Shown here in pieces: positions 1-20,279 of a stretch of DNA of 64,000 nucleotides. Position numbers and translations under genes: made by a program. The notes below the pieces were generated by a model. It made no database searches, had not been told where the DNA came from, and saw only the letters and a list, made by a program, of their open reading frames with translations. Each line of letters starts with the position of its first letter. Position 1 is the first letter of the stretch. Origin of the DNA: an uncultured Gammaproteobacteria bacterium (lineage in GTDB: Bacteria > Patescibacteriota > Microgenomatia > Levybacterales > GWA1-39-11); NCBI GenBank assembly GCA_964627245.1, contig CAZVGS010000001.1, positions 89,256-153,255 on the forward strand. The letters are read 5' to 3'.

Positions 1-132
1 ACAGAACCAGTATCAGGAGCACGCTACATTGATATTCTAGAATGTGGCATTACAATAATAAGAAAAAACGGGGATAAATATGAACTACTGAAAATCGGTG
101 ACATTTCCCATCTCTCTATTCCACTGATTTAA
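1..132 (+). CDS. 3' end of a plus-strand ORF running in from upstream (partial, C-terminal 43 aa); hypothetical
   Basis: Frame 1 is open from base 1 to the TAA at 130-132; there is no start inside the window. Confidence 0.3.
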   Translation, partial: TEPVSGARYIDILECGITIIRKNGDKYELLKIGDISHLSIPLI

Positions 133-226
133 GCAATTGCTGCAAATGAATATTTGTAAAACTCAATCTCTTTCAGTGGTAGTTTGCTATAATAAGTTCG
201 AACATCGTTCTGTAGCTGACCCCAAT

Positions 227-967: not shown

Positions 968-970
968 GAC

Positions 971-3381: not shown

Positions 3382-3387
3382 AAGAAC

Positions 3388-3948: not shown

Positions 3949-3971
3949 ATAAATGTATGTGTGCTTCCTAT

Positions 3972-4001
3972 AATATACTCAGAAAATAACTTGAAGGTCA
4001 A
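3972..4001 (-). promoter_or_regulatory. candidate sigma70-like promoter (TTGACC-N18-TATATT) for the 3948->227 minus-strand operon
   Basis: Reverse complement of 3972-4001 reads cTTGACCttcaagttattttctgagTATATT, placed about 25 nt upstream of the ATG at 3948. Confidence 0.3.
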
Positions 4002-4137
4002 GAGGAAATGGAAAAAATTTGTGAGCATGATGAGTATAGAATGGAACACCTTAGAATCCTCATTCATGCGAATCTATAATACTCTGAATAAGTATAACAT
4101 AGCGGTTCCTGCGTTTGCGTCTGTAGTATAATGCCGT

Positions 4138-4809
4138 ATGGAACTCCCATACAGTGAATATGTCTGGTTCTCTCCGCGATTCGCGATGAATTACCTCACA
4201 GACTTGATGAGAAAATACACTCCTGATGTTGTACTGAGAAGCCCCAAATACAAGAAAGAAAAAGAAGCATGGATTATGGGCGTAGCACTCTTCGGGGTTA
4301 TTAAAATCACCCGTGTTAGGTGGTGGTTACAAGTGCCAACTGATGACCCACCAGACATGAAGGCTATGATGTTAACGCCAGACCATGATAAAAACCTCAA
4401 TATCATGAATTATCGTGAAGTTGAAATAATGCAAATCACCAAACATACTAACGGAACTATTGTTGAGGAGATTTTGAGAAAGTTAAAGGGTAATTCATAC
4501 CCCAAGGAATGGGCACTAGTCGTCTACTTAAACCGTGCAATGTTTATAGAAGATATGCGAAAAATATCAAACGAACTCGTTGAGGCAAAACCGAAAATCG
4601 CAGATATATGGGTAGTTGCCAGCACTACACCAAATGCGAATAAATACATACTATTTTCTCTTTTCCCAGAGGTTCAGACAGTTACATACGATATTGATGA
4701 GGAGATGAGAAATTTAGAAATTGGAGACTCTATTGACCTCATGCCATACCATAAAGGTACGACAATGACATTAATCCGCAATGTTAAACGCACAAAATTT
4801 ATTCCCTGA
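4138..4809 (+). CDS. hypothetical protein (223 aa), leftmost gene of the putative element
   Basis: Intact ORF with GC content like the element block; no recognisable motif. Confidence 0.45.
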   Translation: MELPYSEYVWFSPRFAMNYLTDLMRKYTPDVVLRSPKYKKEKEAWIMGVALFGVIKITRVRWWLQVPTDDPPDMKAMMLTPDHDKNLNIMNYREVEIMQITKHTNGTIVEEILRKLKGNSYPKEWALVVYLNRAMFIEDMRKISNELVEAKPKIADIWVVASTTPNANKYILFSLFPEVQTVTYDIDEEMRNLEIGDSIDLMPYHKGTTMTLIRNVKRTKFIP

Positions 4810-4839
4810 CCTCTGAATTAGCTACTGCAAACCTCAAAA

Positions 4840-4862
4840 AAAACTTGACTTCCTGCCCGTTA
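4840..4862 (+). promoter_or_regulatory. promoter/operator-like motif AAAACTTGACTTCCTGCCCGTTA (copy 1 of 2)
   Basis: Contains a TTGACT -35-like hexamer; 22 of 23 nt identical to 10587-10609; both copies lie upstream of plus-strand gene blocks. Confidence 0.35.
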
Positions 4863-4881
4863 TCCGATTACGGTTATCAGT

Positions 4882-5037
4882 ATGAAGTCAACACGTGCGA
4901 CAATCATACTCTCTTCAGACGTTCATGAAGCCTTAAGACGAATGGCGTTTCAAAGACGGCTAAGCATCTCAAAACTGGTCCGACTTTCCCTCATTGACTT
5001 CCTTTTGAAGCATGGGGAGAAAAGACCGGAGGAATAG
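4882..5037 (+). CDS. ribbon-helix-helix (CopG/Arc-like) DNA-binding protein, 51 aa
   Basis: MKSTRATIILSSDVHEALRRMAFQRRLSISKLVRLSLIDFLLKHGEKRPEE; N-terminal beta strand then two helices is the RHH pattern; below the ORF-track size cutoff. Confidence 0.45.
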   Translation: MKSTRATIILSSDVHEALRRMAFQRRLSISKLVRLSLIDFLLKHGEKRPEE

Positions 5038-5209
5038 TATGACAGGGGTGAGATTGTCCATCCTTGCCCCGCATACTAATGATTAGCTATGAGCGCAAAA
5101 GATTTAACAATGATTATAGAAATACTGGTACAGATGGATTACATCAGGATTAAGCTCGATGAAAATCAGCGGGTACTTGAGATACTGGCCAAGAGACTGA
5201 AACGATAAT

Positions 5210-5509
5210 ATGAATTTAGAATTTAACAAAACATGCGAATTATGCAGGGATGAGTTTACCCTTACCCACAGGCCACACAGAGGCGGAACAATAGTCTCAC
5301 GGTTGTGTCCTAATTGTGAATCAATCAAACCTGAGATTGAAAAGGTAATGTACGGCAAATCCTACTCAAGCGCAACGGATGAGGATAAAGCCAGAATCTT
5401 CGAACGCGCACGGGAAAACAGAACAGTCAGACGCGGACCGTTCTTCAATCCCAAAGACAACGGAACGGGCGGAAAAGTTCAGTCAGAATACGAAAGGAGA
5501 AAAAGGTAA
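5210..5509 (+). CDS. zinc-ribbon protein (CxxC...CxxC), 99 aa
   Basis: CELCRDEF...CPNCES; the motif C-E-x-C-x-[DE]-x-F-T-[LI]-T is shared with ORF 16194-16553. Confidence 0.5.
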   Translation: MNLEFNKTCELCRDEFTLTHRPHRGGTIVSRLCPNCESIKPEIEKVMYGKSYSSATDEDKARIFERARENRTVRRGPFFNPKDNGTGGKVQSEYERRKR

Positions 5510-5712
5510 TGCCGACAAGAAATAATACAGAAGGAAAGGTATTCGGTGATATTGAGGGACAGACAAACCACCCTGAGGGACTGGACATGACAAAACAGTT
5601 AAAAATGAGGGAAGGACAGCGCAGCGGATTGGTCAGAATGGGAGTACCGAAAAGCATCGTCAGAGCAAGTATCAATCAGGCTCAGTTTAAGCCTACAAGA
5701 AAGGGTAAATAA
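5509..5712 (+). CDS. hypothetical small protein, 67 aa
   Basis: Start overlaps the upstream stop (translational coupling). Confidence 0.4.
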   Translation: MPTRNNTEGKVFGDIEGQTNHPEGLDMTKQLKMREGQRSGLVRMGVPKSIVRASINQAQFKPTRKGK

Positions 5713-5795
5713 TGATCACTTACTGTTCGGAATGCGGGTACAGACTTTTCCGGGGTAAATACCGATACTACTGTATTAACAAAGAATGCTTATGA
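5712..5795 (+). CDS. tiny zinc-ribbon ORF, 27 aa (MITYCSECGYRLFRGKYRYYCINKECL)
   Basis: Four Cys arranged as CxxC...CxxxC; overlaps neighbours at both ends (ATGA-type coupling); below the ORF-track size cutoff. Confidence 0.25.
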   Translation: MITYCSECGYRLFRGKYRYYCINKECL

Positions 5796-5968
5796 TAGAT
5801 GAATTACTTGATGATATGGCAATTGAGATTGAACGGCTAATGGTAAGCGATGCGGTTAAAGCCCGCCTGAGATTACAGCTTGCAGAGCTTGCGGATAATA
5901 CCCAGGAGCTACGGCTGAAAGCACTATTTGACTGTATTCTGTTCGAGGCCAAAAAACTAAACACATGA
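5786..5968 (+). CDS. hypothetical small protein, 60 aa
   Basis: Coupled chain of small ORFs. Confidence 0.4.
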   Translation: MLMIDELLDDMAIEIERLMVSDAVKARLRLQLAELADNTQELRLKALFDCILFEAKKLNT

Positions 5969-6264
5969 AACTATACGAAAAAGCAATAAAACAACTGGAG
6001 CGGGATAAACCTAAGGTAACTATTGAGGATAACACAGCCAAGAGAATAGAAATCCTGAACAAACTGTTACAGGCAGAATACGGATTCATTGAGCAGAACA
6101 AAGATGAAGTAACGAAAGAGCTGAAAGGACGGTTCAAAGAAACCCTGATAAATGAAGTACTTGAAGAGATTAAGAATCACAGCAATACCGGTAAAACACC
6201 GTACTATGTAGGACTACAGATCGCCAGCGATACGGTACAAAAACGAAAGGGAAAACAGCAATAA
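5965..6264 (+). CDS. hypothetical protein, 99 aa (Lys/Glu-rich, helical)
   Basis: ATGA overlap with the upstream ORF. Confidence 0.45.
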   Translation: MKLYEKAIKQLERDKPKVTIEDNTAKRIEILNKLLQAEYGFIEQNKDEVTKELKGRFKETLINEVLEEIKNHSNTGKTPYYVGLQIASDTVQKRKGKQQ

Positions 6265-6265
6265 T

Positions 6266-6613
6266 ATGAAACAAAATAAGACCATTTCCCCCTTAGAAGG
6301 AAATAATGAGGAAGCCGAACAGGCTACAAAAGAGATACGGTCAGGCAAGTCAGCTAGTGGAAAGAAATCTTCCCCCCCCGTTCCCCGTCCCCAACAAACA
6401 CCGTTTAAGATAAACAAACTCTCGGATATCCGCAAAGCAAGTAAGGTACTCATGACTGATTTAATCAACAAGGAGGGCAGGTTCACGGTTGCAGAAAGCA
6501 GAGTATTCAAGGACATGGCAGAGCTGTACTTTAAGGCGGAGGAGAACATTACAACCAAGAGACTAATGAATAAGCTGAAGAAAGAAAACGACACGGACAG
6601 AAAGGGGCGGTAG
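6266..6613 (+). CDS. hypothetical protein, 115 aa (basic)
   Basis: Starts immediately after the stop of the previous ORF. Confidence 0.45.
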   Translation: MKQNKTISPLEGNNEEAEQATKEIRSGKSASGKKSSPPVPRPQQTPFKINKLSDIRKASKVLMTDLINKEGRFTVAESRVFKDMAELYFKAEENITTKRLMNKLKKENDTDRKGR

Positions 6614-6760
6614 CGCAGGGGTATGGGTACTGAATAAACTGTACGGTATTTCAATGATGCTACACCACCCCCCACCTATACCTACACCCCGCGCGGTGGG
6701 ACACGGGTAAAGGGAGTGACATATAGAGGAAGTACTTAACGGTGTACAGAAGGTAACCCA

Positions 6761-7006
6761 TTGAAGCGAACTCTTATAAATTTTTTGGGAGATTTTTGTC
6801 ATAATAACTGTATGAATGATACCAACTTTCTAATTTCTCTGGCTATTGGTTTTGTTATATTTTTACTTTTTTCATTTAGTGGCCCAAAAACGCATCGCGA
6901 TCCATTCTATGGTGATATTGATAACATTTCGCATAGTATTGCTGTTGGATTGATCTGTATGGGGGCAACGTACAGTATTTTGCAAATTATTAGTAGTATG
7001 TTTTGA
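6761..7006 (+). CDS. small membrane protein (2 TM), start uncertain
   Basis: Hydrophobic helices LISLAIGFVIFLLFSF and IAVGLICMGATYSIL; lies in an AT-rich segment. Confidence 0.3.
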   Translation: MKRTLINFLGDFCHNNCMNDTNFLISLAIGFVIFLLFSFSGPKTHRDPFYGDIDNISHSIAVGLICMGATYSILQIISSMF

Positions 7007-7042
7007 TGTCCCAATTTGACAAAGATTGATTAGCACGATACG

Positions 7043-7399
7043 GTGTATAAGCTTGGTAAAGGATACTATGGCAGTATTCTAATCTACAAAGGAGCATCTC
7101 TCAGGAGGTGCTTTTTTGTGTCTATTTGGTATAATGAATTAATGGATTATAAAACTGCCAGTGAGCTACTTAGAGAACTTTCTCTACTTTGGATATGGGA
7201 AGCCGGAAACTATAATAATAAAATTCCATCCAACTTGCTTACCCGGGATCTTTGTTATTATGACCAGGCGTGCGACTATTTACGACGATTTCCTAAAACA
7301 GGTGATCTTGAACGTGTGGCCCTCGCTCAAATGCAGATGAATTACATTGACGATATTGAGGGGAATAATGAAATGGAAAAATTATTTTCCATCCTCTAA
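7043..7399 (+). CDS. hypothetical protein (118 aa as called; possibly starts at the internal Met, MDYKTASELL)
   Basis: ORF in an AT-rich segment. Confidence 0.3.
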   Translation: MYKLGKGYYGSILIYKGASLRRCFFVSIWYNELMDYKTASELLRELSLLWIWEAGNYNNKIPSNLLTRDLCYYDQACDYLRRFPKTGDLERVALAQMQMNYIDDIEGNNEMEKLFSIL

Positions 7400-7528
7400 C
7401 CTTTTAATTACATCAGCTCTTCTCTTCCGTACTTCATCAAGGAGTTTCTTACGTCTTTCACGGACTTCATTGTACATGGGTTTTACTACTACTCGTGGCT
7501 TTCTAAACTTCCCGTATTCAGTCATACG

Positions 7529-7822
7529 TTAGTACTCTCCTACGCGTTCAGCCCATTGAGGAGGTGTTCTTTCGTCCTCTTCGCTATGTAATTGAGTTTC
7601 AAATGATATTTTCGAGGCGTGTTCTATAGTGGAATCTTTACCTACTTCGCCACCTATTCCGAGTACGGTAATTCCTACTTTTCCGCCTCCCTTGTCACTC
7701 TTGGTAACTGCAATATCAAATTTAACGGAGCTTGAAACATAATTACCGCCAGTGTGAGCGTCCTTTATCTGCCTGAGGCTTTCTTGTATGAAGTCTTTTA
7801 GTTCGTTATTTTCGTCTGCCAT
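7529..7822 (-). CDS. small Gly-rich beta-type domain protein, 97 aa; reminiscent of Trypco2-like conflict-system domains (tentative)
   Basis: KFDIAVTKSDKGGGKVGITVLGIGGEVGKDSTIEH pattern; last gene of the minus-strand cargo operon. Confidence 0.4.
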   Translation of the reverse strand: MADENNELKDFIQESLRQIKDAHTGGNYVSSSVKFDIAVTKSDKGGGKVGITVLGIGGEVGKDSTIEHASKISFETQLHSEEDERTPPQWAERVGEY

Positions 7823-7823
7823 A

Positions 7824-8291
7824 TTATACGGTTACCTTCTTTTTCTTGAACCTTCTGTATCCTAAATATCCCAATCCCCCAAGTAGTGCCATTGCCACAA
7901 CCCCACCACCTCCACTATCTTCACTCGCTCCCTGAACGGCTATGGTTGGTGTAGGCTCTTTGGGCGAGGGTGTATTCGTGGGTTCATCCGTAGGTTCAGC
8001 GGTAGGAGTAGGAGTATTGGTAACAGCACGGGTTGGTATTCTCGAGGGTGCGGTTGTGTTTATCGGTGCAAATTGTTTTACGGGTGCGGTTGTTGCAACG
8101 GGTGCACTTTCAACCCTTTTTACGCTTCCGTCTGGGTTATGGTGGTGATATTCTCCAGAGCCTAAACCCCATTCTTCGCAATTAGTACGGCATCTATGAC
8201 CACCGCTCCCGTCGGTCCCTCCAGGATGGGCTTCTATAGGGGAAACAGATATATAGAAGAGCAGGGATAAGATAAGTAAAGTTTGATACAT
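7824..8291 (-). CDS. small secreted Cys/His-rich protein with PT-rich linker and C-terminal TM anchor
   Basis: Signal peptide MYQTLLILSLLFYISVSPIEA; GGHRCRTNCEEWGLGSGEYHHHNPDG; PT linker; C-terminal VVAMALLGGLGYLGYRRFKKKK. Confidence 0.55.
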   Translation of the reverse strand: MYQTLLILSLLFYISVSPIEAHPGGTDGSGGHRCRTNCEEWGLGSGEYHHHNPDGSVKRVESAPVATTAPVKQFAPINTTAPSRIPTRAVTNTPTPTAEPTDEPTNTPSPKEPTPTIAVQGASEDSGGGGVVAMALLGGLGYLGYRRFKKKKVTV

Positions 8292-8310
8292 TAACCAGTA
8301 TTATACTCCT

Positions 8311-10227
8311 TTAATCGTGCCAAATGTCATTACCTCTCGCATCCATACCTAACCACTGCTGAGATTTTTCTAATTCCTCACGCCAGTACCACCCGCCGGG
8401 AACTTTTTCTTCTGTCTTTTTCTTAATAGCTGGTTTCCGTGTTGGGGTCGGAGACGGAGCTTCAGTTGTTATCGGGCTAGGGGTAACTGATGGTATTGCG
8501 TTTACCGTTGCTACCGGAGAAAGAATTTCGAGAGCACTCACTTCTTTTATCTTTGTTGCCGAATCAAATAAATAGTAAGTAGTAAATCCAGATACAGTTG
8601 CAAATACAGAGATGAAAATAATGATTTGACTTACAGTGAGATAATTAGCTCTAATGTGTGAAAATGCATAATTAATCCGTTTTGATAGGGGTGGGATTTC
8701 ACTTAACCGTCTTTTGGTATTTCTCATCTGTACAACCAAAATAAACGTTATTATGAAATTCCAAAAAATCCAGAATTGAATAGAAAAATAATCAATATCA
8801 AATAAATGAATATCCCCTGTCCTTAGCCCAATCAGAATTAGAATAGTATAGAAAGTGAAATATATGGTTACAAACCGTGTCGTTTGTGAGAAAGCATGAG
8901 AGACAGATTTGTGTTTCGCGTTAGTTGAAACCCATCCGACAGATTTTTTGAACAATGCGGTTTTTACTGCGTGGGAATACGCATAAGTTCGAGCCATGAG
9001 AATTCCAAAATACCCGAATCGAAATTTAGCGACTGGGAATAACCACAGGTAAACAATTGCAAAAATTAAGTGAGGGTAAAAGAGCAAACTCTTACCGAGA
9101 GGAATATATTCATTGTATAAGAACAGTGTCCAAAAGAGATGGAAAGAGAAGAGGATCATCAAAGGGTGATGTAAATAGAACATAAACCCGGTAATAAAGC
9201 AGAATTTGGTTTTCCACGATGTCTTACCTTTCCAGAAAAATTTTGAAAGCATTAATCGCAAACTACCCATACACCATCTATGTTGTTGGTGGAAAAAGGC
9301 GTATTGATTATCCGGGCATAATCCAATAGATAGAAGTATCGGTACAAATAGAACCCTTAAACCTACTCTTGAAATAGCGTACCCAGTATGAGCATCTTCA
9401 CTGTATTCAATCTGATAGGGTCCGCCGATTGCCTCGATTGCACTTCTCCGATACAATGCACACGAACCACAGCATATAGCCCCCCCGAATCGACTTCTCG
9501 TCACTTGAATAAATCGGTAAAATGGCTCTTCGGCAAATGCTGCGTTATATGCGAATTTTGATTTTTTATATGCATTATCTGACAAATCAAAGTATTGAGG
9601 CGTTTGAACAATTCCGACAGTTGGATCATCCATATACGGGAGCGTTTCTTTTATAAAATCGGGATGGGGTGCGAAATCAGCATCAAAGATTGCGATAAAA
9701 TGACCATTAGACCTCTCAAAAGTATGTTTCAAATTTCCAGCCTTTTTCATATGTCCCTTATTCGGCCGTTCCATATAAACGAATCCAAAGTGTTGAGCCA
9801 ATTCTTTATGCGCCTCGAAATTTTCCTTCGAATCATCCAATACGTATACGGTTTTATTTTTATAGTTAATGTTTGATACGTGTTCCCAGGTATTTCTGAG
9901 TACGTCAACTTCTTCACCACAAATAGGCAAGAAAATATCAACGGGGGGTTCTTTGTCATATGATTTTACAAGTGCAAAGTGTTTCAGCAAGTCAAATTGA
10001 CGGTAAAACAAGTTAAGGCCAAAGCTGGCAAGGTGATAAATAGAGAGTAGTATAAAAATTGGAATGACAAAAAATGAATAAAACGGGTCTATCCCTATGA
10101 CGTTCCAGTACCCAAGCATAATCAAGATCCATGAGAAAATCCCAAATCCATACAGTAATCTAACTTTCCAGGTGGGAGTTTTTTCAATATACAGGTACTT
10201 ATTAATTGTCGAGGGGTTGGGGAGCAT
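8311..10227 (-). CDS. processive family-2 glycosyltransferase (cellulose/chitin/hyaluronan-synthase-like), multi-TM
   Basis: 638 aa; N-terminal TM helices, DD and DxD-type motifs (LDDSKEN, IFDADF), QQHRW (QxxRW) motif, C-terminal TM bundle, then a PT-rich tail. Confidence 0.8.
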   Translation of the reverse strand: MLPNPSTINKYLYIEKTPTWKVRLLYGFGIFSWILIMLGYWNVIGIDPFYSFFVIPIFILLSIYHLASFGLNLFYRQFDLLKHFALVKSYDKEPPVDIFLPICGEEVDVLRNTWEHVSNINYKNKTVYVLDDSKENFEAHKELAQHFGFVYMERPNKGHMKKAGNLKHTFERSNGHFIAIFDADFAPHPDFIKETLPYMDDPTVGIVQTPQYFDLSDNAYKKSKFAYNAAFAEEPFYRFIQVTRSRFGGAICCGSCALYRRSAIEAIGGPYQIEYSEDAHTGYAISRVGLRVLFVPILLSIGLCPDNQYAFFHQQHRWCMGSLRLMLSKFFWKGKTSWKTKFCFITGFMFYLHHPLMILFSFHLFWTLFLYNEYIPLGKSLLFYPHLIFAIVYLWLFPVAKFRFGYFGILMARTYAYSHAVKTALFKKSVGWVSTNAKHKSVSHAFSQTTRFVTIYFTFYTILILIGLRTGDIHLFDIDYFSIQFWIFWNFIITFILVVQMRNTKRRLSEIPPLSKRINYAFSHIRANYLTVSQIIIFISVFATVSGFTTYYLFDSATKIKEVSALEILSPVATVNAIPSVTPSPITTEAPSPTPTRKPAIKKKTEEKVPGGWYWREELEKSQQWLGMDARGNDIWHD

Positions 10228-10232
10228 ACGAA

Positions 10233-10532
10233 CTAGTTACCACCATTTCGTACACGGGACACAAAATCTCTAATTCTTTGTTGAAAGTCATTGTTATATT
10301 CTTTGAATTCTGGATTACGAACAGCTTTACAGCTTGGATAAGAAATTTGTCGATTAAATGGAAGTTCGCGTGTTACAGTCTGACAAACAATAGTTACAGG
10401 TGTATGAGGATTATCATAAATTGGCGGTGTTACTCCACCTCCACCATAAGCAGAAGCTGTTGGAACGTTAAATAAGAATACGGAGAGAATAAATGTGAGT
10501 ATAAATAACTTTTTCATCCTTAAAAGCATCAT
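10233..10532 (-). CDS. small secreted protein, 99 aa (possibly starting at the internal MKKLF)
   Basis: Signal peptide ...FILTFILSVFLFNVPTASA; first gene of the minus-strand cargo operon. Confidence 0.5.
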   Translation of the reverse strand: MMLLRMKKLFILTFILSVFLFNVPTASAYGGGGVTPPIYDNPHTPVTIVCQTVTRELPFNRQISYPSCKAVRNPEFKEYNNDFQQRIRDFVSRVRNGGN

Positions 10533-10544
10533 AACAGATGCATC

Positions 10545-10572
10545 TTATAATATCAATACCCATTTCTTACAA
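10545..10572 (-). promoter_or_regulatory. candidate promoter for the minus-strand cargo operon (TTGTAA-N16-TTATAA)
   Basis: Reverse complement reads TTGTAAgaaatgggtattgataTTATAA just upstream of the ATG at 10532; AT-rich divergent control region. Confidence 0.3.
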
Positions 10573-10586
10573 TATTTTAATTTTTG

Positions 10587-10609
10587 AAAACTTGACTTCC
10601 TGTCCGTTA
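10587..10609 (+). promoter_or_regulatory. promoter/operator-like motif AAAACTTGACTTCCTGTCCGTTA (copy 2 of 2)
   Basis: Near-identical to 4840-4862; precedes the second plus-strand gene block. Confidence 0.35.
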
Positions 10610-10684
10610 GTACGATAGGGTTTCATCATAAGCTAAACAGCCAAGCACTAGCACTTAGCGACTAATCGTATTTTCGAGAGGTCG

Positions 10685-10730
10685 CTTTTTTTGTGGCTGG
10701 AATGTTGAAAAGCGGGGGTTCCTCCTTCAA
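10685..10730 (+). promoter_or_regulatory. bipartite conserved element CTTTTTTTGTGGCTGGAATG ... GTTCCTCCTTCAA (copy 1; copy 2 at 17196-17247)
   Basis: Both halves recur in the same order and spacing upstream of the 17336 ORF; preceded by an AGCGAC/GTCGCT inverted repeat. Confidence 0.3.
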
Positions 10731-10789
10731 CAAGGGGTCCATAATGCCCCCGCCTTTGAGCCTTTCAGTTAAATGATACAAGGTTAAAT

Positions 10790-11062
10790 ATGAAGAAAGT
10801 AAGCAGAAACAATTTATACAGAGAGATAGACAAATTATTCCTTTGGTTAATTCAGTTACCCGATACTGATGCCGATGAGGATAAGTCTTTGCGTGAAATT
10901 CAGAAACATCTTGTCAGGTTATCAAATCTGAAAAGTGAGGAATACACTCAGGAAGCTCCTGAACAGCCGGAACAACCGCAACAGCAGGAACCGCAAAAGC
11001 CGTTAACCGATATGCAACGAAAAATTATGAGCGGGGAAATCTCGATAGGAGGACAGGAATAA
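10790..11062 (+). CDS. hypothetical protein, 90 aa (acidic, PEQPEQPQQQ repeat)
   Basis: First ORF of the second plus-strand block; the next gene starts 2 nt after its stop. Confidence 0.45.
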   Translation: MKKVSRNNLYREIDKLFLWLIQLPDTDADEDKSLREIQKHLVRLSNLKSEEYTQEAPEQPEQPQQQEPQKPLTDMQRKIMSGEISIGGQE

Positions 11063-11063
11063 A

Positions 11064-12101
11064 ATGGCTTGGGGCGAACAGGGACAGAAAATTACATGGA
11101 CACCGAACGTAGTTTCAGACGATAAGAAACAACACGGCGGATGGTATGACAATCCTTCAACGGGATATAACCAACGGTGGTACTCAGGCGGTGCAACCAG
11201 TGAAAACGGTAACTCTTCCTCTAGTGGCTTCTCAATTCCTCAACCTGATATGGAAGCAATCAATCGGGAGTATCAGCCTATTTATGAGAATTATGCCCGT
11301 GATGAGCAGTTCTTAAAAGAATCCCAGGCAAGTGAGCAGGAAATGCTTAATGACAATTTTACTCTTGCCGATACCCGACTTGATAGGAATAAAACGGAGC
11401 GCGAGTTACACAACAAGGAACAGGAAACTACACTTAATAATCAATACCGCTCAGCGTACGAGGAAGTAGTACGCGCACAGAACGCATTAACACAGCAGGG
11501 AAATGTACGATTCGGAGGCACATCTTCAGCGGGTCGGGCTATGGGAGAAATCGCACAAAGTGAATTCTTCCGACAGTCAGGAAAAATACAGAATACCCAT
11601 CTTGAGAATATAGGCAGAATTCAGTCCGATTGGAGAAAATATCTTTCTTGGCATGCGGACGAAGAGCAAAGACTGGTCCAGGAGAAAAGACACGAAACCA
11701 CAAAACTTCAAAACACGTACAAACAGATGTATGTTCAGATTGCAAATAACCGTAACATCACAAAATCAGAACAGGCACGGGCACAGCGCAACGCTCAGGA
11801 AACATACCAGGCACGTAAGGCAGACCTTGAGAACTCTATCAAACTCAGACAGATGGCAATGGATGAGTACGCCCAAAAACTCAGAATGGAACTTGATGCG
11901 CAAATTGAGTTAGCGGGTAAAACAGCCTATTCGGTATCGGATAACACGTTTGCAAGTGATACTCAGTCAGATGTTGACGGTGTAAGTTATGTTCCTTCCG
12001 AGAACGGCAGTCTTATGAATATGAATACCAGTTATGTAAATCCGTTCGCACGCGCACGATACAGCGATGATGAATTTGAGGATAATCCTTATTTCGCTTA
12101 A
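11064..12101 (+). CDS. hypothetical Gln/Asn-rich coiled-coil-like protein, 345 aa
   Basis: Long ORF with coding-like composition and no recognisable catalytic motif. Confidence 0.5.
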   Translation: MAWGEQGQKITWTPNVVSDDKKQHGGWYDNPSTGYNQRWYSGGATSENGNSSSSGFSIPQPDMEAINREYQPIYENYARDEQFLKESQASEQEMLNDNFTLADTRLDRNKTERELHNKEQETTLNNQYRSAYEEVVRAQNALTQQGNVRFGGTSSAGRAMGEIAQSEFFRQSGKIQNTHLENIGRIQSDWRKYLSWHADEEQRLVQEKRHETTKLQNTYKQMYVQIANNRNITKSEQARAQRNAQETYQARKADLENSIKLRQMAMDEYAQKLRMELDAQIELAGKTAYSVSDNTFASDTQSDVDGVSYVPSENGSLMNMNTSYVNPFARARYSDDEFEDNPYFA

Positions 12102-12106
12102 TAACT

Positions 12107-15100
12107 ATGGAATTAAAATCACTGCTCAGAGACGTTTCACGCCGTTATAACGAATATAACCGTAAACAGAAAAAACCACGCATACAGCCGAGTCTTATTG
12201 AAGATGTCGGGAACCGATTCCGCTCATTCGTAAAAGAACAGTCTCAGGAAGGCCAACCGCTCCACAAAATAACCCGCACCATTCAGGAATTACCGTTAGT
12301 TACACAACGCGAAGTAGATGAGGTCGGGACCCGCTTTCGCTCTTTCGTGGATGAAAGACAAAAAAATGTTGATGATGTGGGTAAACGATTCGGGGAATTC
12401 AAAGTAAAGGCTTCTCAGTTTTCAAAGGATTATGACCCGTTCAACTTTGATGAAAAAGCCCCGATAAATCAGCTTCCCGTTCTCGGCGATATCCGCAGAA
12501 CATTACAGCCGTATACAAATCCTTATAAATTAGGTCCTATGGAACTGATGCGCAGAAATACGGAACTCATGCAAAAAGAGAGTAAAGGAATTGCATTGAC
12601 CGATGAGGAAAAGGAATTTCAGAAGTATTACATGACCGAACAGGCTTCTATGGTTATGCCGATGGGTACGGTCGGTAAAGTGGCAAAACCCGCATTAACC
12701 GCATTGCAGAAAGAAGCCGTAAAGAAATTACCTAAAATACTCTATGAATTTGATGCTAAGACCGCAAACAAGGTAATTGATGAAGCAAAAGGAGCCTCTA
12801 AAGAATGGGTTGATGAATTCAAATCATGGGTAAATACCAGAGCATCCGCACAGCTTCAGGGACTGAATCAGCGGATGAAATTCAAGGATATGGATTCTGA
12901 GGGAATTGCAGGTATTTTTAAGTTCCAGGCAGGAGACAAGACGGGACGGTTTGCCGATGTGAAGAAATTTTTTGATTCCCGCTATTCAGAACTTCAGAAA
13001 GCAGGAGTTGAATTCAGATATAAACAGGAGTATCTACCGCAACTATGGCTTAATTCAAAAGAAGAGGTTGAGGAACGGCTCGGACGAACTCTTACTTCCC
13101 GTCCTTCCTTCTCTCTTCGATCAGTAATTGAGAATTATCAGAAAGGAATAGCTAACGGACTAAAACCGCGCTTTCAGACATTATCGGAACTTATCGGATG
13201 GTATGAGGCAAAAACGGCCAAAGTTATAGCGGATCAGAATTTTTACAACTACATGAAGAAGGCAAAGTATATTCTTCCTGAGGATACGGCTCCTGCATGG
13301 TGGAAAACGATAGATTCCGAGAAGTTTCCGAAGTTCACGGTTAAAGTAGGTTCGGAGGTTAAGAATCTGAACTATAAAGCTGAGGGAAGAATTGCGGATG
13401 CTATTAACAATTATCTTAATGACCCTGAAGGAGCATTACCAGCTTTTGCTGACTTTGCCACGAAGGTTAAGAATCTGGGATTATCGGCAGGCGTACCCCA
13501 TACTTCAATTAACTTTCACGGCTATAACATCTTCGTCCGTTCGGTCCTGGCAAGTAATAACCCCGTATCTTCTATTTTCAGAACAGGCCAATGGATGCTT
13601 AAACCCAAAATTGCGGAACGGTTTGTTATGAATAACCTTGAGGATGCGCAGTATTTTGTTAAAAACGGCATGACCATGAGTACCGAGGATTACGGACTGT
13701 TCGAGGCGGTTGAGAAGGTTAAAAAAAGCGGTGTAATTAATAAGACATTAGATAAATATGAGGAATGGTTCGGGGACCCTCTGTTTAAGAAATCCCTTCC
13801 CGCAATCAAAATTCAGTATACCCGCGCATTGTTTGATGATTTACTCAAAACATTGCCTGAAGAGGAAGCGGTAAAGATAGCCGTAAAAAGCGCAAATGAT
13901 GTATTCGGGGGAATTAATTTGAATGAACTGATGCGCAACAAACAAACACAAAATGTACTCCGTTCCGTTCTGCTCGCGCCAGACTGGGCTGAGTCTACAA
14001 TCAGAATGGGTAAAGGAATTGTTAAAGGAGTTGCCAACCCGTTAAGCCCCGAGTACAAAGCATACCGTACTTTTGCCAAAAACATGGTATTCGGGTATAT
14101 CACGGCCAACGTTGTGAATAAAGCTCTGTCAGGTCACTGGATGTTTGAAAATGAAGGTAACAATAAATTCAATATTGATACCGGTACATATACGGGAGAC
14201 GGTAAGAAACGGTACTTCAGAATCTGGGGTACGGCCGTTGATTTTGCCAGACTTCCTGTTGATATCGTTAACGGTCTCTCAAAAGGCGATCCGTCAGCAT
14301 TTGTCAGAACCTTCACTAACCGCTTATCCATGCCTGTAGGTTCAGCAGGACATTTACTATTCAATAAAGATTATCTCGGACGGCCCGTATACGGAAAAGA
14401 CCAATGGGGAAATGAAATCGACCCTATACAGTCAGCAGGAGGCATAACAAATGAAGTATTACGCGGTGTCGGAACTCCTACTCAGGTAATGGCGGGTATT
14501 GATTTACTTACAGGGCGTTCAAATCCCGAACAGGCTCTTGCTCAGTCACTTGAACTTCCGATGCGATATCAGGGAGGAGCAAGCTCGGACACACAGAAAA
14601 GAAGAAATGCAGCGTTTCAGTCTCTCGGCTTTGAAGGCGAAGCATTAGCCCGCGAAATGGAGAGAACAAAGGGTATGAGATATTCGGGAAGTCAGGGAGA
14701 AGAAAAGTCACTGCTTGACCATATCGGAGAAAAGTTCATGAGCGTATTCGGTAAGAAAGAACCTAACAGACCTCAGCCGAATGACCCGCTTACAAAGGCT
14801 TTTCTTGCGGATATCGAAAAGGATGAGAATGCTACCCGTGTAAGAGAAGTATTCAAATTAGGTTTAAGCAAGGAACAGACAGAACAGTTACTTGAAAAGG
14901 AAGGATTAGGTACGTATGAAGAAGCTGAATTGATAATTATGAAAGCTCTCGGTGTTGAGAACGGAACTCGTGGAAATTACATTCAGGAGATTACAAAGGG
15001 AATGGATGATGAAAGTAAAGAGGCCACTCTTTCCTATCTGGCCGAGAACGAAATTCTGACTACCTCAGTTATATCCCAATGGGTTGATGACGGGGAAATA

Positions 15101-15391
15101 ACAGACGAGGAAGCCGATTATCTGAAGGACCTGATTAAAAAAAGTAAAGGAACGTACAAAGGTCCGAAGGCAAAAGGCGGTAAGAAAGCGGGCGCAAAGA
15201 AAGTAACGGCAGGAAGTATCCCGACAATTAAGATTCCTACTTTTGCGGGCGGTACGGTTAAGAGTGTCAGCAAGGCATATTACAAACCGATACCAAAGAT
15301 TACCTATGAAAGACCTACGCCTACTTCAAAACAAAAAGTATCAGCTCCGAAGCCTGAGACTAATTTTAAATCATACGGAGGGAACAACTAA
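12107..15391 (+). CDS. large hypothetical protein, 1094 aa, with N-terminal repeats [DE][DE]VG-x-RF-x-[SE]F and a Lys-rich C-terminus
   Basis: Repeats DVGNRFRSFV / DEVGTRFRSFV / DDVGKRFGEF; C-terminal KAKGGKKAGAKK; could be an ejection/pilot, tape-measure-like or DNA-associated protein. Confidence 0.55.
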   Translation: MELKSLLRDVSRRYNEYNRKQKKPRIQPSLIEDVGNRFRSFVKEQSQEGQPLHKITRTIQELPLVTQREVDEVGTRFRSFVDERQKNVDDVGKRFGEFKVKASQFSKDYDPFNFDEKAPINQLPVLGDIRRTLQPYTNPYKLGPMELMRRNTELMQKESKGIALTDEEKEFQKYYMTEQASMVMPMGTVGKVAKPALTALQKEAVKKLPKILYEFDAKTANKVIDEAKGASKEWVDEFKSWVNTRASAQLQGLNQRMKFKDMDSEGIAGIFKFQAGDKTGRFADVKKFFDSRYSELQKAGVEFRYKQEYLPQLWLNSKEEVEERLGRTLTSRPSFSLRSVIENYQKGIANGLKPRFQTLSELIGWYEAKTAKVIADQNFYNYMKKAKYILPEDTAPAWWKTIDSEKFPKFTVKVGSEVKNLNYKAEGRIADAINNYLNDPEGALPAFADFATKVKNLGLSAGVPHTSINFHGYNIFVRSVLASNNPVSSIFRTGQWMLKPKIAERFVMNNLEDAQYFVKNGMTMSTEDYGLFEAVEKVKKSGVINKTLDKYEEWFGDPLFKKSLPAIKIQYTRALFDDLLKTLPEEEAVKIAVKSANDVFGGINLNELMRNKQTQNVLRSVLLAPDWAESTIRMGKGIVKGVANPLSPEYKAYRTFAKNMVFGYITANVVNKALSGHWMFENEGNNKFNIDTGTYTGDGKKRYFRIWGTAVDFARLPVDIVNGLSKGDPSAFVRTFTNRLSMPVGSAGHLLFNKDYLGRPVYGKDQWGNEIDPIQSAGGITNEVLRGVGTPTQVMAGIDLLTGRSNPEQALAQSLELPMRYQGGASSDTQKRRNAAFQSLGFEGEALAREMERTKGMRYSGSQGEEKSLLDHIGEKFMSVFGKKEPNRPQPNDPLTKAFLADIEKDENATRVREVFKLGLSKEQTEQLLEKEGLGTYEEAELIIMKALGVENGTRGNYIQEITKGMDDESKEATLSYLAENEILTTSVISQWVDDGEITDEEADYLKDLIKKSKGTYKGPKAKGGKKAGAKKVTAGSIPTIKIPTFAGGTVKSVSKAYYKPIPKITYERPTPTSKQKVSAPKPETNFKSYGGNN

Positions 15392-15393
15392 TT

Positions 15394-15579
15394 ATGAATA
15401 AAAAGTGTCTTACATGCGGGACGGAATTACAGAAACGAAAACATGAAAGCCGGGCAAGATTTGAAAAAAAGCAGTTCTGTACGGCCGAACATGCCAGGAC
15501 ACATATGAAGGAAACAGGGCGTGGCTGGTGGAATCCGGAATTTGATAGAGGAAAACTCAGAGCAAAGGGGGTGAATTAA
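15394..15579 (+). CDS. zinc-ribbon protein, 61 aa (CLTCGTE...CTAEH)
   Basis: CxxC plus C/H pair; strong SD upstream. Confidence 0.45.
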   Translation: MNKKCLTCGTELQKRKHESRARFEKKQFCTAEHARTHMKETGRGWWNPEFDRGKLRAKGVN

Positions 15580-15581
15580 AT

Positions 15582-15776
15582 ATGAACAAAGACCAATTAA
15601 GAGATGAAATGCAACAGGTAGCTTATGACACTATTCGGGGCGTTTCAGGACAACAGGTAAACGAGATTGATTACAAGAACGCGCTTGTATCAAAAACTCA
15701 GGAAGTCGTTGACGGAGCATATCAGCTCGGTTATAACGCGGGCTTTGAGGCGGGCAAAAACGCGCCACAAGGTTAA
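15582..15776 (+). CDS. hypothetical protein, 64 aa
   Basis: SD AAGGGGGTG upstream; coupled to the preceding ORF. Confidence 0.45.
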   Translation: MNKDQLRDEMQQVAYDTIRGVSGQQVNEIDYKNALVSKTQEVVDGAYQLGYNAGFEAGKNAPQG

Positions 15777-15808
15777 GAAATATTAAAAATGAAAGGAGGT
15801 GTAAAAAT

Positions 15809-16201
15809 ATGATTCGCAGAGATAAAACAAATTACGATCCTAACAAGGATAAATACAACTGGACGAACGACATGTACCGACAGGATGAGCTTTCTAACAG
15901 GGATTTAGAAGAACAGAAAGCGATAATCAATAACTGGCAGGCTATGAGTGAAAGTAAAAATGAAGCTGAAAAAGCCGAATGGGAACTGAACAGAAGAATT
16001 GCAGCGGTTACCGAAACGGATAATGCAGACATCAGACAGAAAGAGGCAATTAAGAGATACAAAATAGCCCAAAAATATGACGAGATAATCCGTAGCAAAA
16101 TGACAAGAGGCCAGACAGAGGAAGAATTTGAAGAAGAACGTCATGAATACGGAGCATTGCATCGCAGGGCTTTAAAAGAGGCTATGCGGTCAATTGAATA
16201 A
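15809..16201 (+). CDS. hypothetical charged helical protein, 130 aa
   Basis: SD AGGAGGTG, 8 nt upstream of the ATG. Confidence 0.5.
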   Translation: MIRRDKTNYDPNKDKYNWTNDMYRQDELSNRDLEEQKAIINNWQAMSESKNEAEKAEWELNRRIAAVTETDNADIRQKEAIKRYKIAQKYDEIIRSKMTRGQTEEEFEEERHEYGALHRRALKEAMRSIE

Positions 16202-16553
16202 TATGAGGGACGAGAAATGTATTGAATGCAGTGAGCAATTCACGATTACGGAAAGTGAACAATCATTTTATGTAAAGATGGGGTTCTTTCTTCCGAAAAG
16301 ATGCGCTGATTGCAGAAGAAAAAGAAAAGCTCAATTCGGGCAGGAAAGGAGGTTTAACTTAATGAATAATTCAAAACTTACAACATCAAGAATTACAAAG
16401 GCCACGAAGCAGGAAGCACCTAAAAATGCTATAGATTTTGCTTCTGACCAGAGAAAGGGAGTAACCAACTCTCAGGCTCCTGAAATTCGTGCGAATAACG
16501 GAACCATCTCTAGCAACGGCGGACGGTTCGGCGGATTCCTTAAGAACCGCTAA
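16194..16553 (+). CDS. zinc-ribbon protein, 119 aa; paralogue-like to ORF 5210-5509
   Basis: CIECSEQFTITESEQ ... CADCRRKRK; shares the C-x-E-C-x-[DE]-x-F-T-[LI]-T motif. Confidence 0.5.
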   Translation: MNNMRDEKCIECSEQFTITESEQSFYVKMGFFLPKRCADCRRKRKAQFGQERRFNLMNNSKLTTSRITKATKQEAPKNAIDFASDQRKGVTNSQAPEIRANNGTISSNGGRFGGFLKNR

Positions 16554-17043
16554 CGGTAATTGGAGGGCAGGTTGTTGTTCGTGAGTTCAAACGGAAACGA
16601 GCAGTTTCCGGGTAATGTGTTCCTCATGAGCAACGCTCTGTCCTTCAGGACGGAATGGCTTACAGCCTGAGATTTCATAGCTCTCAGTCAACACCAACGG
16701 GCGGAGCGGGTAAAGAATGTGCAGGAAAATCAGTCTCACAATAATAACTTTACCTGCCCGCTACGAAGTGCATACTCTACGGCTCTGTAATGCCTCAAAA
16801 ACGAGAGGAAATGCCTGAATCATACACATATACCATTAACGGGGTAAGACACGAAAAACGAAACTATACGGCCTTCTGGACCATAGATGAATAATAAATA
16901 TATTATGTATGTACAGGCACATAATTAGTTAAGATAACAGTAATTACTTAACGTACTATAAGCTTGACAAGTCACTTCCAGCATGATACAAATAATATGT
17001 AGCAATAAAAAAGCTATCGGGTAATAAGTGTTTGAGCAAATGA

Positions 17044-17112
17044 CCCTTTTCGGGTGCTGTTGTTCTAACTGCTTCAAACACGGCACAGCACTACCCGAAA
17101 GGGGTTTTTTAT
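17044..17112 (+). terminator. rho-independent terminator (long imperfect hairpin plus T-run)
   Basis: CCCTTTTCGGGTGCTGT ... ACAGCACTACCCGAAAGGGG followed by TTTTTTAT. Confidence 0.5.
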
Positions 17113-17195
17113 TGGCTTACTACTAGCCCTATTAGTAGTGCACATACGGTAGAGGCAATCAGATGAATCGCGTAAAAGCGGAAAATCGGTTGTCT

Positions 17196-17247
17196 CTTTT
17201 TTTGTGGCTTGAATGAGGGGAATCGTCAGCGCGTTCCTCTCCTTCAA
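17196..17247 (+). promoter_or_regulatory. bipartite conserved element CTTTTTTTGTGGCTTGAATG ... GTTCCTCTCCTTCAA (copy 2)
   Basis: See 10685-10730; lies about 90 nt upstream of ORF 17336. Confidence 0.3.
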
Positions 17248-17335
17248 TTCGCAAGAATTGAGGTAAGTAGTTAAGTCCTTTGTCTGGCTGGCATTTGCTT
17301 CTTTGTCAGTCAGTCAAAGCATTTAAGGAAAGGGG

Positions 17336-17608
17336 GTGAAAATTATGGACAAAAGTAACGAAAACAACCTATGCAATCATTCATTCGGCGAAATAACTGA
17401 ATCAACTGACGGAGTATTTTTTATTGACTGTGAACTTTGCGAAAAGAGAGTAAGAATGACTGATGAACAGTCTGAAGAATTCATGAAATTTAGAGAAAGT
17501 ATGTGTCAGAAATGCAAATCGAATACGGCCGATTGCGGTGATTTATGTAAACGTTGTGACGGTATTTACAAAATTTTAGAGGCTACAAGAACGGAAGAAT
17601 CATGGTAA
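17336..17608 (+). CDS. Cys-rich (multi-CxxC) zinc-binding small protein, 90 aa
   Basis: CNHSF...CELCEKR...CQKCKS...CGDLCKRCDG; strong SD AAGGAAAGGGGGTG. Confidence 0.5.
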   Translation: MKIMDKSNENNLCNHSFGEITESTDGVFFIDCELCEKRVRMTDEQSEEFMKFRESMCQKCKSNTADCGDLCKRCDGIYKILEATRTEESW

Positions 17609-17689
17609 GAGCTGAGAGTTTGTGAGTTTTGCCTGGAGTGGTCCCGGATCACTTCAGACAAAGAACATAAGAGAAGGAGGTGTATTAAT

Positions 17690-18106
17690 ATGGAACACAA
17701 AATATTTAATAAAAAGCATGGATTTACGCAGATTGAAAACTGTATTCTGCGCAGTTCTGTTTTAAGCCAGTCAGCAAAGTTGGTTTATGCTGACCTCGTT
17801 TCTTATGACTTTAATAGTAAAGGAGTTTTCCCGGGACAAGACAGAATGGCATGGGATTTGAGAATGTCACTTAGAACCATCATCCGCGCAATTAAAGAAC
17901 TGGAATCCTGGGGTTTGATAACCGTTGAGCGAAGGGGTAGGAACAAACCCAACTTTTACATTATTGAAGAGGTCCCCCAGAAATTAAAAGATATGTTCAA
18001 CTTTACCCAGCTCGAATGGAAAATACAAAAGGATATGTCACCGGAACAAAGAGCTGAAAGAAACAAAGTTGTGAAAAAACAATGGAAAGAATTCGGCTGG
18101 ATTTGA
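17690..18106 (+). CDS. winged-helix DNA-binding protein, phage/plasmid replication-initiator or regulator-like
   Basis: 138 aa; LSLRTIIRAIKELESWGLITVERRGRNKPNFYII resembles wHTH initiator/regulator domains; SD AGAAGGAGGTG; followed by direct repeats. Confidence 0.5.
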   Translation: MEHKIFNKKHGFTQIENCILRSSVLSQSAKLVYADLVSYDFNSKGVFPGQDRMAWDLRMSLRTIIRAIKELESWGLITVERRGRNKPNFYIIEEVPQKLKDMFNFTQLEWKIQKDMSPEQRAERNKVVKKQWKEFGWI

Positions 18107-18108
18107 GC

Positions 18109-18143
18109 GGGATGTGACAAATGGGATACTTCAGGATGTGACA
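18109..18143 (+). repeat. two direct copies of GGATGTGACA, 25 bp apart (iteron or operator-like)
   Basis: 18109-18118 and 18134-18143, immediately downstream of the wHTH gene. Confidence 0.3.
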
Positions 18144-18345
18144 CCAGAGTAACCGAAGAATACTAAGATCTAATAATACTAAGTCTCACACTCACTCGCT
18201 TTCGCTCGCTCGTTGGCGCAGCAGAAATAATTGTTTTACCACGAATGATTACTATTAAGTTTTCTTTCGAGGCTTTTCTTATTCTCGGCTATAACGACAA
18301 GAGGTTTTCGCTTATCATTAACTCTCACAAAAATGATCAATAGTG

Positions 18346-18422
18346 TTGAGTATATAAGATAAAAGTGCTATATTGTATATATCTTTTCTGATAGAACGTG
18401 AGAGGTTCTACTTACTCACGTT
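18346..18422 (+). promoter_or_regulatory. candidate promoter (TTGAGT-N17-TATATT) followed by a perfect 8-bp inverted repeat AACGTGAG-N12-CTCACGTT (operator-like) ahead of the small-ORF/recombinase operon
   Basis: -35 at 18346-18351; -10 at 18369-18374; inverted repeat at 18395-18422 ends 1 nt before the ATG at 18423. Confidence 0.35.
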
Positions 18423-18560
18423 ATGACTATTCAGGAAAAAGAACAATTAAAAAATTTACCTCCCTTACCTGAAGAGGTTGAAGCTAAATTGCGTGCATTC
18501 GTTAATCTGATTATCGACCGCGTGCAGGAAGAACAGGCCAAGGGGGTAGTAAAAAAATGA
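18423..18560 (+). CDS. small ORF (45 aa) translationally coupled to the recombinase; candidate directionality factor or accessory protein
   Basis: MTIQEKEQLKNLPPLPEEVEAKLRAFVNLIIDRVQEEQAKGVVKK; its TGA stop overlaps the recombinase ATG (ATGA); below the ORF-track size cutoff. Confidence 0.3.
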   Translation: MTIQEKEQLKNLPPLPEEVEAKLRAFVNLIIDRVQEEQAKGVVKK

Positions 18561-20233: not shown

Positions 20234-20279
20234 ACCGATTCCTTAAGAGGGAATTGCTCTACCATTGAGCTAGCCGCCC
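20208..20279 (-). tRNA. tRNA-Lys (anticodon CTT)
   Basis: Hand fold: acceptor GGGCGGC/GCCGCTC (one G-U), D arm GCTC-AATGGTA-GAGC, anticodon loop CTCTTAA, T arm CAGGG-TTCGAGT-CCCTG; no encoded CCA; the 3' 26 nt lie inside the recombinase ORF. Confidence 0.75.

Follow-up and report, generated by a model that had tools for sequence, protein, structure and literature searches.

The subject of this analysis is a four-gene, minus-strand operon in a 64,000-nucleotide stretch of contig CAZVGS010000001.1 (assembly GCA_964627245.1, from an uncultured bacterium), hereafter the window, together with the integrated element that carries it. The operon lies inside an element of ~16 kb (~3950/4137-20233) that encodes a large serine integrase and is probably inserted at a tRNA-Lys(CTT) gene. 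It is accessory cargo in a variable slot of that integrated element, being flanked by element sequence on both sides and absent from relatives of the element. Its largest product, a family 2 glycosyltransferase (GT2) of 638 residues, is by sequence and predicted fold a processive synthase of the BcsA type, but not a BcsA equivalog. We favour, at a probability of roughly 0.68, a reading in which the operon combines a two-gene module of the host lineage with two unrelated additions and sits as cargo in the slot of the element; the mechanistic part of this reading is inferred.

The four open reading frames (ORFs) are tightly packed between 7529 and 10532, with intergenic gaps of 5, 19 and 1 nt. 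They are real genes and not chance ORFs, because homologues exist for the GT2 (2691 at E<=1e-5), for the 99-residue product of the first gene (36) and for the 97-residue product of the last (10). The original prediction, made by a model from the sequence alone, had described a four-gene minus-strand operon between two plus-strand blocks, and this layout is indeed present, with flanks at 4138-7399 and 10790-20233. Its description of the members also checks out: a secreted 99-residue protein, a GT2 with a QxxRW motif, an anchored His-rich protein with a Pro-Thr (PT) linker and a Gly-rich protein of 97 residues.

A variable slot in an integrated element

The slot becomes visible when the window is set beside related elements (homologous loci carry L numbers here, and homologous proteins P numbers). 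L018 and the right plus-strand block of the window share synteny over six genes; nucleotide homology between the two starts abruptly at ~10586 and the loci are unrelated to the left of this point, which defines where a variable cargo slot ends on the right. Exactly at the break, L018 carries a methylase, R.HinP1I and Vsr. The slot is positioned immediately upstream of a gene pair encoding a relative of a 345-residue coiled-coil protein and a large protein, of 1094 residues in the window, which we call the hallmark. In L019 the slot holds three small minus-strand genes and in L038, L039, L041 and L044 it holds different, mostly minus-strand ORFans; the slot genes of related elements gave no Pfam match. 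None of ~40 related element loci contains a homologue of any operon gene. The original prediction had asked whether homologous elements carry other cargo at the same position, and they do: a restriction-modification (R-M) system in L018 and ORFans in others.

On its right side the slot is bounded by a 23-nt motif and a structured leader of ~200 nt. The leader is strongly conserved with L018, and the mean column identity of 77% refers to the whole alignment, with the unrelated left flank included. It folds into a terminator-like hairpin followed by a run of seven Ts (~10657-10692) and then into a long GC hairpin (~10714-10756), with three compensatory pairs, and it matches no Rfam family. The predicted structure may represent an antitermination-type switch for the late block of the element.

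We treat the blocks on the two sides of the operon as one element because they share motifs, because a zinc-ribbon gene of the left block has homologues in related elements, and because the circular gene order is that of relatives. The 23-nt motif, which contains TTGACT, stands upstream of both plus-strand blocks (4840-4862 and 10587-10609), and a second motif of 24 nt occurs as a pair at 10681-10704 and 17192-17215; zero chance matches are expected for either. These pairs are probably shared promoter/operator and terminator elements. Read as a circle, the gene order (integrase, small-gene block, slot, 345-like gene, hallmark) is the same as in the integrated relatives L044 and L054.

Because the integrase ORF runs into its 3' end, the tRNA-Lys gene is the probable integration target and the probable right boundary of the element; L041 shows this layout too, with a tRNA-Arg. 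The integrase matches all three of the Pfam families Resolvase, Recombinase and Zn_ribbon_recom, two of them just below the cut-off, and the phrog_95 integrase family at 2.6e-31. We place the left end at 3949-4137, because the genes at 971-3948 continue directly from the host gene for 6-phosphogluconolactonase (6PGL).

For the hallmark we found seven protein homologues, mostly on contigs of 14-16 kb, as well as 15 loci in IMG/VR and 23 metagenome loci, the metagenome scan having been made with an alignment of five sequences. The element family that emerges, with its contigs of ~15 kb, serine integrase, pair of 345-residue and hallmark proteins and variable slot, is undescribed in the libraries searched.

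The synthase, its partner and two additions

Several lines of evidence bear on the identity of the GT2. It matches the Pfam families Glycos_transf_2, Glyco_tranf_2_3 and Glyco_trans_2_3, has ~7 transmembrane (TM) segments by hydropathy, and finds its best matches in metagenome-assembled genomes (MAGs) of Saccharibacteria and other members of the candidate phyla radiation (CPR). Among NCBIfam models CelA (1.4e-51) ranks ahead of NodC (2e-19) and PgaC (3e-10), and the best sequence match in the PDB is BcsA (2e-33). An AlphaFold2 model built on 82 relatives (pLDDT 86.5, pTM 0.81) retrieved BcsA with Foldseek at 6e-23, followed by chlorovirus hyaluronan synthase (HAS) at 1.6e-12, plant CesA at ~1e-11 and chitin synthase at ~1e-7; the top eight matches were all BcsA (E from 6e-23 to 5e-17, TM-scores 0.46-0.56). 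As the rankings by sequence and by fold agree, we place the protein in the cellulose/chitin/hyaluronan class, nearest to BcsA. The earlier proposal of a processive synthase of this class is thereby borne out by motifs, NCBIfam, PDB and Foldseek, and the comparison with the BcsA, HAS and NodC families that it called for gives a processive synthase nearest BcsA by both sequence and fold. It is not an equivalog, with scores of 175.4 bits against a cut-off of 699.1 (TIGR03030) and 131.2 against 992 (PRK11498).

The catalytic motifs are intact, align with those of BcsA in the PDB sequence search and are invariant or nearly so across the 82 relatives: D131, D182xD184, S276-E-D278 and H313-Q-Q-x-R-W318, with Q314-Q-H-R-W318 (QQHRW) as the signature of the window protein. 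K161-K-A-G-N165, Q208-x-P-Q211, C252-C-G254 and W432..T435-N-x-K438 are likewise invariant or nearly so. The likeness to BcsA (PDB 4HG6/4P00, 9B8V; TIGR03030) thus takes in a GT-A domain with the D, DxD, (T/S)ED and QxxRW motifs, the HxKAGN, QTPx and xxCGS motifs with an equivalent of the WxxTNAK gating loop, and TM channel helices after the catalytic domain. There are also clear differences. Identity to BcsA is ~20-30%, and the window protein has two N-terminal TM helices instead of four. Pfam finds no PilZ domain, and past the last core TM segment there is instead an extra TM helix (~530-552), a disordered PT linker and a short, Trp-rich tail. No BcsB-like neighbour was found with Pfam or NCBIfam, nor is there a BcsC or BcsZ neighbour; the adjacent genes have no significant Pfam match, and the synthase is paired with a small secreted protein of ~95 residues, ~70 of them in the mature form.

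Most relatives of the GT2 are ~515-550 residues long, and the C-terminal extension is found in the window protein and three others (P0002, P0003/L009 and P0011/L062), with the tail itself common only to L009. A candidate link between the GGWYW tail and a GGWY motif at the N terminus of the 345-residue element protein was not significant (E = 0.15). A scan of viral contigs with the GT2 returned no relative, and the window contains no second copy of the genes for the GT2, the 99-residue protein or the 97-residue protein.

When all window proteins were searched by tblastn against the loci of close GT2 relatives, only the upstream 99-residue protein was found to travel with the synthase, the two genes occurring together in more than ten loci; a homologue stands directly upstream of the GT2 gene in L001/L012, L002, L003, L009, L010/11, L013-15, L016 and L062. 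Because only these two genes are conserved together, we regard the operon as a mosaic of a conserved pair and two unrelated additions from the host lineage. The notion that the four genes form a coherent functional unit therefore does not hold, since only the pair is conserved and homologues of the 97-residue protein are stand-alone chromosomal genes.

The pair occurs in different surroundings. In L013/L014 it occupies a plain chromosomal, element-free site with HtpX-like, LemA, GatCAB and DnaE genes as neighbours, and in L016 it is chromosomal beside glycan genes. In L010 it lies on a plasmid-like contig with Rep3, ParA, relaxase and resolvase genes, and in L012/L001 it adjoins a large serine recombinase and a diversity-generating retroelement. 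Chromosomal and mobile contexts are interleaved in a neighbour-joining tree, and the window GT2 is 65-73% identical to chromosomal genes of the host lineage. The presence of the pair in both kinds of context leads us to see it as a host-lineage module that mobile elements have picked up repeatedly; this lineage belongs to the CPR and is probably Saccharibacteria-like. The original prediction had held that finding the operon on the chromosome of element-free relatives would make it ordinary host surface biosynthesis. For the pair this is what L013/L014 show, but the finding speaks to the origin of the cargo and does not place the window copy outside the element.

Two further observations concern these loci. 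The retroelement, at 421-1827 of L012 (on the same contig as L001, from a Saccharibacteria MAG), comprises bAvd and a reverse transcriptase. In L004-L007, from more distant CPR, a second, paralogous GT2 of 536-593 residues precedes the synthase, and the small secreted protein is absent.

The partner itself has an N-terminal hydrophobic signal segment, and the true start of its gene is probably M6, at 10517. The family is narrow, with the 36 representative homologues coming from 1.84 billion proteins, and in its alignment A-Y-G-G is invariant where the signal peptide ends and is followed by the Cys pair of Cys45 and Pro61-x-Cys63 and by the conserved Arg81. The first of the two additions, of 155 residues, begins with a signal segment and ends in a membrane anchor, with a His-rich YHYH domain and a PT linker between them. 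Residues 20-51 match YHYH_alt (NF033223) at E=3.3e-7, a marginal pass with 30.5 bits where the cut-off is 30, and no homologue of the protein lies beside GT2 homologues in any locus fetched.

The second addition, the 97-residue protein, contains a GGGKVGITVLGIGGEVG stretch and lacks a signal peptide. It stays below the cut-off for Trypco2 (PF19631; 16.9 bits, threshold 24.2, E=0.0075), a family for which one distant homologue (P0138) has a precomputed match. Its ten homologues adjoin GreA or FtsZ genes. L058/L059 carry a copy that is 64% identical and are syntenic with host genes of the window at 42-47 kb and 60.4 kb (39-60% identity); at the equivalent host position of the window the gene is absent, and the sole window copy is the one in the operon. 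We take the 97-residue gene to be an addition from the host lineage.

Transcription signals and other features of the element

A sigma-70-like promoter match lies directly upstream of the operon, with TTGATA, a 17-nt spacer and TG-TATGAT (10/12 positions, extended TG). At 3 nt beyond the stop codon of the last of the four genes begins a very basic ORF of 47 residues, which overlaps the end of a convergent plus-strand ORF by 18 nt. No intrinsic terminator was found between the 97-residue gene and this ORF, which could be a fifth gene of the operon. We found no repeats resembling insertion sequences or transposons on the flanks of the operon, and PADLOC matched neither the operon nor its neighbours to a defence system.

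The coordinates of these features and of the remainder of the element are collected below. The right block opens with a 90-residue gene and also includes several small genes and a zf_Tbcl (treble-clef zinc-finger) protein. At the opposite end, the 223-residue protein may be further end-of-element cargo. The plus-strand ORF at 7043-7399 contains a strong terminator-like hairpin (7085-7120, 16 pairs); its gene probably really starts at M34 (~7142) and may stand as a unit of its own on the left border of the cargo slot. Outside the element, directly downstream of its left end, lie three minus-strand host genes (971-3948) whose Cys-rich products are secreted or anchored and contain long PT linkers; the repeats that code for these linkers resemble those of the 155-residue gene and of the GT2 tail.

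Table 1. Features of the operon and of the element around it, in window coordinates (RHH, ribbon-helix-helix; wHTH, winged helix-turn-helix)
Feature	Position	Strand	Basis or remark
Left plus-strand block, small genes	4138..7399	+	23-nt motif, homologues in related elements
223-residue protein, no family match	4138-4809	+	Extreme left element end, upstream of first promoter motif
RHH-like protein	4882-5037	+	Left block; read from sequence
Zinc-ribbon protein	5210-5509	+	Homologues in related elements L038, L041
Possible fifth ORF, 47 residues, very basic	7382..7525	-	ORF only
Gly-rich cytoplasmic protein, 97 residues	7529..7822	-	10 homologues
YHYH surface protein, 155 residues	7824..8291	-	NF033223
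BcsA-type processive GT2 synthase (predicted), 638 residues	8311..10227	-	Pfam, NCBIfam, PDB, Foldseek
Small secreted protein, 99 residues as listed	10233..10532	-	ORF, signal-like hydrophobic N terminus, homologues
Sigma-70-like promoter match	10528..10556	-	Consensus match only
Right slot edge: 23-nt motif and ~200-nt structured leader	10587..10790	+	Conserved with L018 2433-2650
Right plus-strand block	10790..20233	+	Pfam, PHROGs, synteny with L018
345-residue coiled-coil protein	11064-12101	+	Right block
1094-residue hallmark protein	12107-15391	+	Right block
wHTH replication-initiator-like protein	17690-18106	+	Right block
Large serine integrase, 558 residues, intact ORF	18557-20233	+	Pfam, phrog_95
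tRNA-Lys(CTT)	20207..20279	-	3' end overlaps integrase ORF end

Competing readings and a possible surface role

Several points weigh against the reading that we prefer. The product and substrate of the synthase are not readable from its sequence, which ranks cellulose synthase above NodC, PgaC and HAS. The nearest sister loci, L009 and L062, have a polytopic membrane protein of ~570 residues after the synthase (2920-4632 and 4724-5578, respectively), which the window lacks; L016 also has it (11564-13237), there fused to the synthase (P0012), and L010, L012 and L013 are without it, as the window is. This protein has no Pfam match and is likely, given its fusion to the synthase in L016, to be a third component of the chromosomal system, so that the element copy of the synthase, missing it, may be incomplete or work differently. 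For the promoter of the operon there is only a match to the consensus, and sites of this kind show no enrichment relative to shuffled sequences; downstream of the operon no intrinsic terminator was found. The exact element ends are likewise deduced, as neither attachment (att) sites nor a target duplication were found: comparing 3380-4200 with 20000-20330 for repeats in either orientation, and scanning 1-20000 for the 3' end of tRNA-Lys, gave only a doubtful 11-mer and 9-mer. Serine integrases leave only a 2-bp core, so missing att repeats are expected here and are not informative.

Composition is a further, equivocal point, being intermediate for the operon rather than clearly host-like. Third-position GC is 0.345 in the operon, close to the host value of 0.337 +/- 0.046 and below the 0.41-0.42 of the element blocks, but whole-gene GC (0.399) is intermediate and the tetranucleotide distance between operon and host (0.019) is at the very limit of what the host's own 3-kb segments show (0.008-0.020). 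The earlier statement that GC in the operon is host-like is right only in a weak sense.

The nature of the carrier also bears on the reading. No capsid, portal or terminase gene is recognisable among the element proteins with Pfam and PHROGs, and the same is true of the close relatives of ~15 kb (L018-L020, L038-L044); hence our term for the carrier, a phage-related integrative element. Possible identities are a satellite, a decaying remnant or an integrative element of the plasmid-like kind, and for any of these lysogenic conversion would be the wrong frame. Of the earlier description of the operon as a moron or lysogenic-conversion module, the accessory cargo of an integrative element stands; the terms themselves presuppose a prophage. 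The link to viruses rests on one protein, the hallmark, which the element shares with podovirus-like contigs. Its family (L017-L057) occurs both in capsid-less integrase elements of ~15 kb and in podovirus-like contigs; the distant contigs that contain it resemble small podoviruses (30-45 kb), with tail and host-specificity proteins and PolA, and in these the hallmark ends the virion module. The hallmark found no match in Pfam, PHROG or PDB profile searches or in 50,697 GenBank phage records. Its AlphaFold2 model (pLDDT 53.8) has fold matches in BFVD to Caudovirales proteins that contain a large polyvalent protein associated domain (LPD) (best E = 1.5e-12, TM-scores 0.35-0.45), a resemblance to polyvalent-protein phages and conjugative elements that belongs to the carrier and not to the operon, and that is a hint only because confidence in the model is low.

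Against this background, three other explanations can be weighed. The operon could consist of ordinary host surface-polysaccharide genes that lie between two element remnants, or within a long-dead, domesticated element, and were never moved by it. The same pair at element-free chromosomal sites in relatives, the chromosomal homologues of the 97-residue protein, the host-like third-position GC, and the lack of att sites found and of structural virus genes would all suit this account, which we nonetheless consider improbable, given that the two blocks are joined by shared regulatory motifs, the circular gene order is that of L044/L054, the 558-residue integrase ORF is intact, L018 homology breaks exactly at the slot edge and the slot varies across the family. 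A somewhat better, still doubtful, case can be made for a temperate phage with the operon as a classic moron, expressed in the lysogen to make a beta-glucan coat that blocks adsorption of other phages (superinfection exclusion). It would sit well with the 15 IMG/VR contigs of the hallmark family, with the place of the hallmark in distant relatives at the end of a tail/virion module with a PolA gene, with the divergence of the operon from blocks that have terminator-containing leaders, with the defence-type R-M cargo in the same slot of a family member and with the precedent of chloroviruses. The close relatives of ~15 kb, the window and L018-L020 and L038-L044 among them, are however without a recognisable capsid, portal or terminase, the hallmark is unmatched among GenBank phage records, and PADLOC finds nothing in the operon.

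The remaining explanation, which we hold to be possible at about the same low level, is that the polymer would serve episymbiotic attachment or a biofilm matrix and that the element would spread this trait among CPR strains, as plasmids spread bcs/pga operons. Close relatives carry the module on a plasmid-like contig and beside recombinases, and in the tree these copies are intermingled with chromosomal ones; extracellular interactions are suggested by the Trp-rich tail outside the membrane and by the anchored YHYH protein; and 729 plasmid records have BcsA-like genes. Set against these points, the account is purely inferential, and the host is placed only through best matches to MAGs of Saccharibacteria and other CPR.

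Comparison with known systems helps to show what would and would not be unusual about cargo of this kind. In GtrABC systems, enzymes of temperate phages decorate existing O-antigen with single sugars by way of a lipid carrier; gtr cassettes vary between related elements, are transcribed independently of the element modules and often lie near regulatory or att regions. The operon resembles these cassettes in that surface-glycan genes form accessory cargo of an integrated element, and differs from them in that its enzyme is a predicted processive polymer synthase and its CPR host is probably without an outer membrane. Viruses can also carry enzymes of this fold class, which Foldseek recovered with the GT2 model. 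Chloroviruses encode hyaluronan and chitin synthases (PMC5408694). In Synechococcus phage S-CBWM1, gp158 is annotated as 'putative cellulose synthase' and is 27% identical to the GT2, the single case among the 50,697 phage records; we found no paper that pairs this phage with cellulose synthase. In both instances, as here, a mobile parasite has a membrane-embedded processive synthase that would place polymer on the surface of its host. Those viruses, however, are large, lytic and express the gene during infection, whereas the carrier here is a 16-kb element without recognisable virion genes, and its GT2 is close to chromosomal genes of the host lineage.

Returning to the reading of the operon as a mosaic carried in the slot, we propose the following mechanism. 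The synthase would take up a UDP-sugar at its cytoplasmic GT-A domain, through D131, D182xD184, S276-E-D278 and Q314xxRW318, and extrude a beta-linked homopolymer, most likely a beta-glucan, through its own TM channel. As PilZ is absent, no control by cyclic di-GMP is expected. The 99-residue partner and the external Trp-rich tail would act outside the membrane, where the nascent chain emerges. The operon has a promoter-like site of its own and is oriented opposite to the plus-strand blocks, which are terminator-gated. Expression in the integrated state would therefore be possible, and synthesis would then be constitutive or independently regulated. Polymer made in this state would change the cell surface. 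That the element would alter the surface of its host by means of the operon is a plausible proposal; a role in superinfection exclusion or in episymbiont attachment, as raised by the original prediction, is speculation.

CPR bacteria, or Patescibacteria, live attached to other cells, and in the literature that we found detailed analyses of their mobile elements are rare; no paper was found that links cellulose synthase with Saccharibacteria. A wider possibility, which we offer tentatively, is that the 99-residue protein and the PilZ-less synthase form a minimal exopolysaccharide system specific to CPR, and that this mobile trait is shuttled among Saccharibacteria-like episymbionts by plasmids, by serine-recombinase elements and by a family of capsid-less elements of ~15 kb that shares a large, possibly injected (polyvalent-type) protein with CPR podoviruses; its acquisition would alter how the cell surface interacts with phages or with the host cell. 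Surface-glycan cargo on mobile elements is already well known, and BcsA-like genes are common on plasmids. What is new here is an under-studied host group, and an undescribed element family that carries such cargo. The pair of the 99-residue protein and the synthase is a compact biochemical candidate, a machine of the cellulose-synthase type without PilZ or BcsB, and the presence of a putative surface-polymer synthase in the cargo slot of an element offers a way to test, in concrete terms, how horizontal transfer relates to the cell-surface phenotype of CPR.

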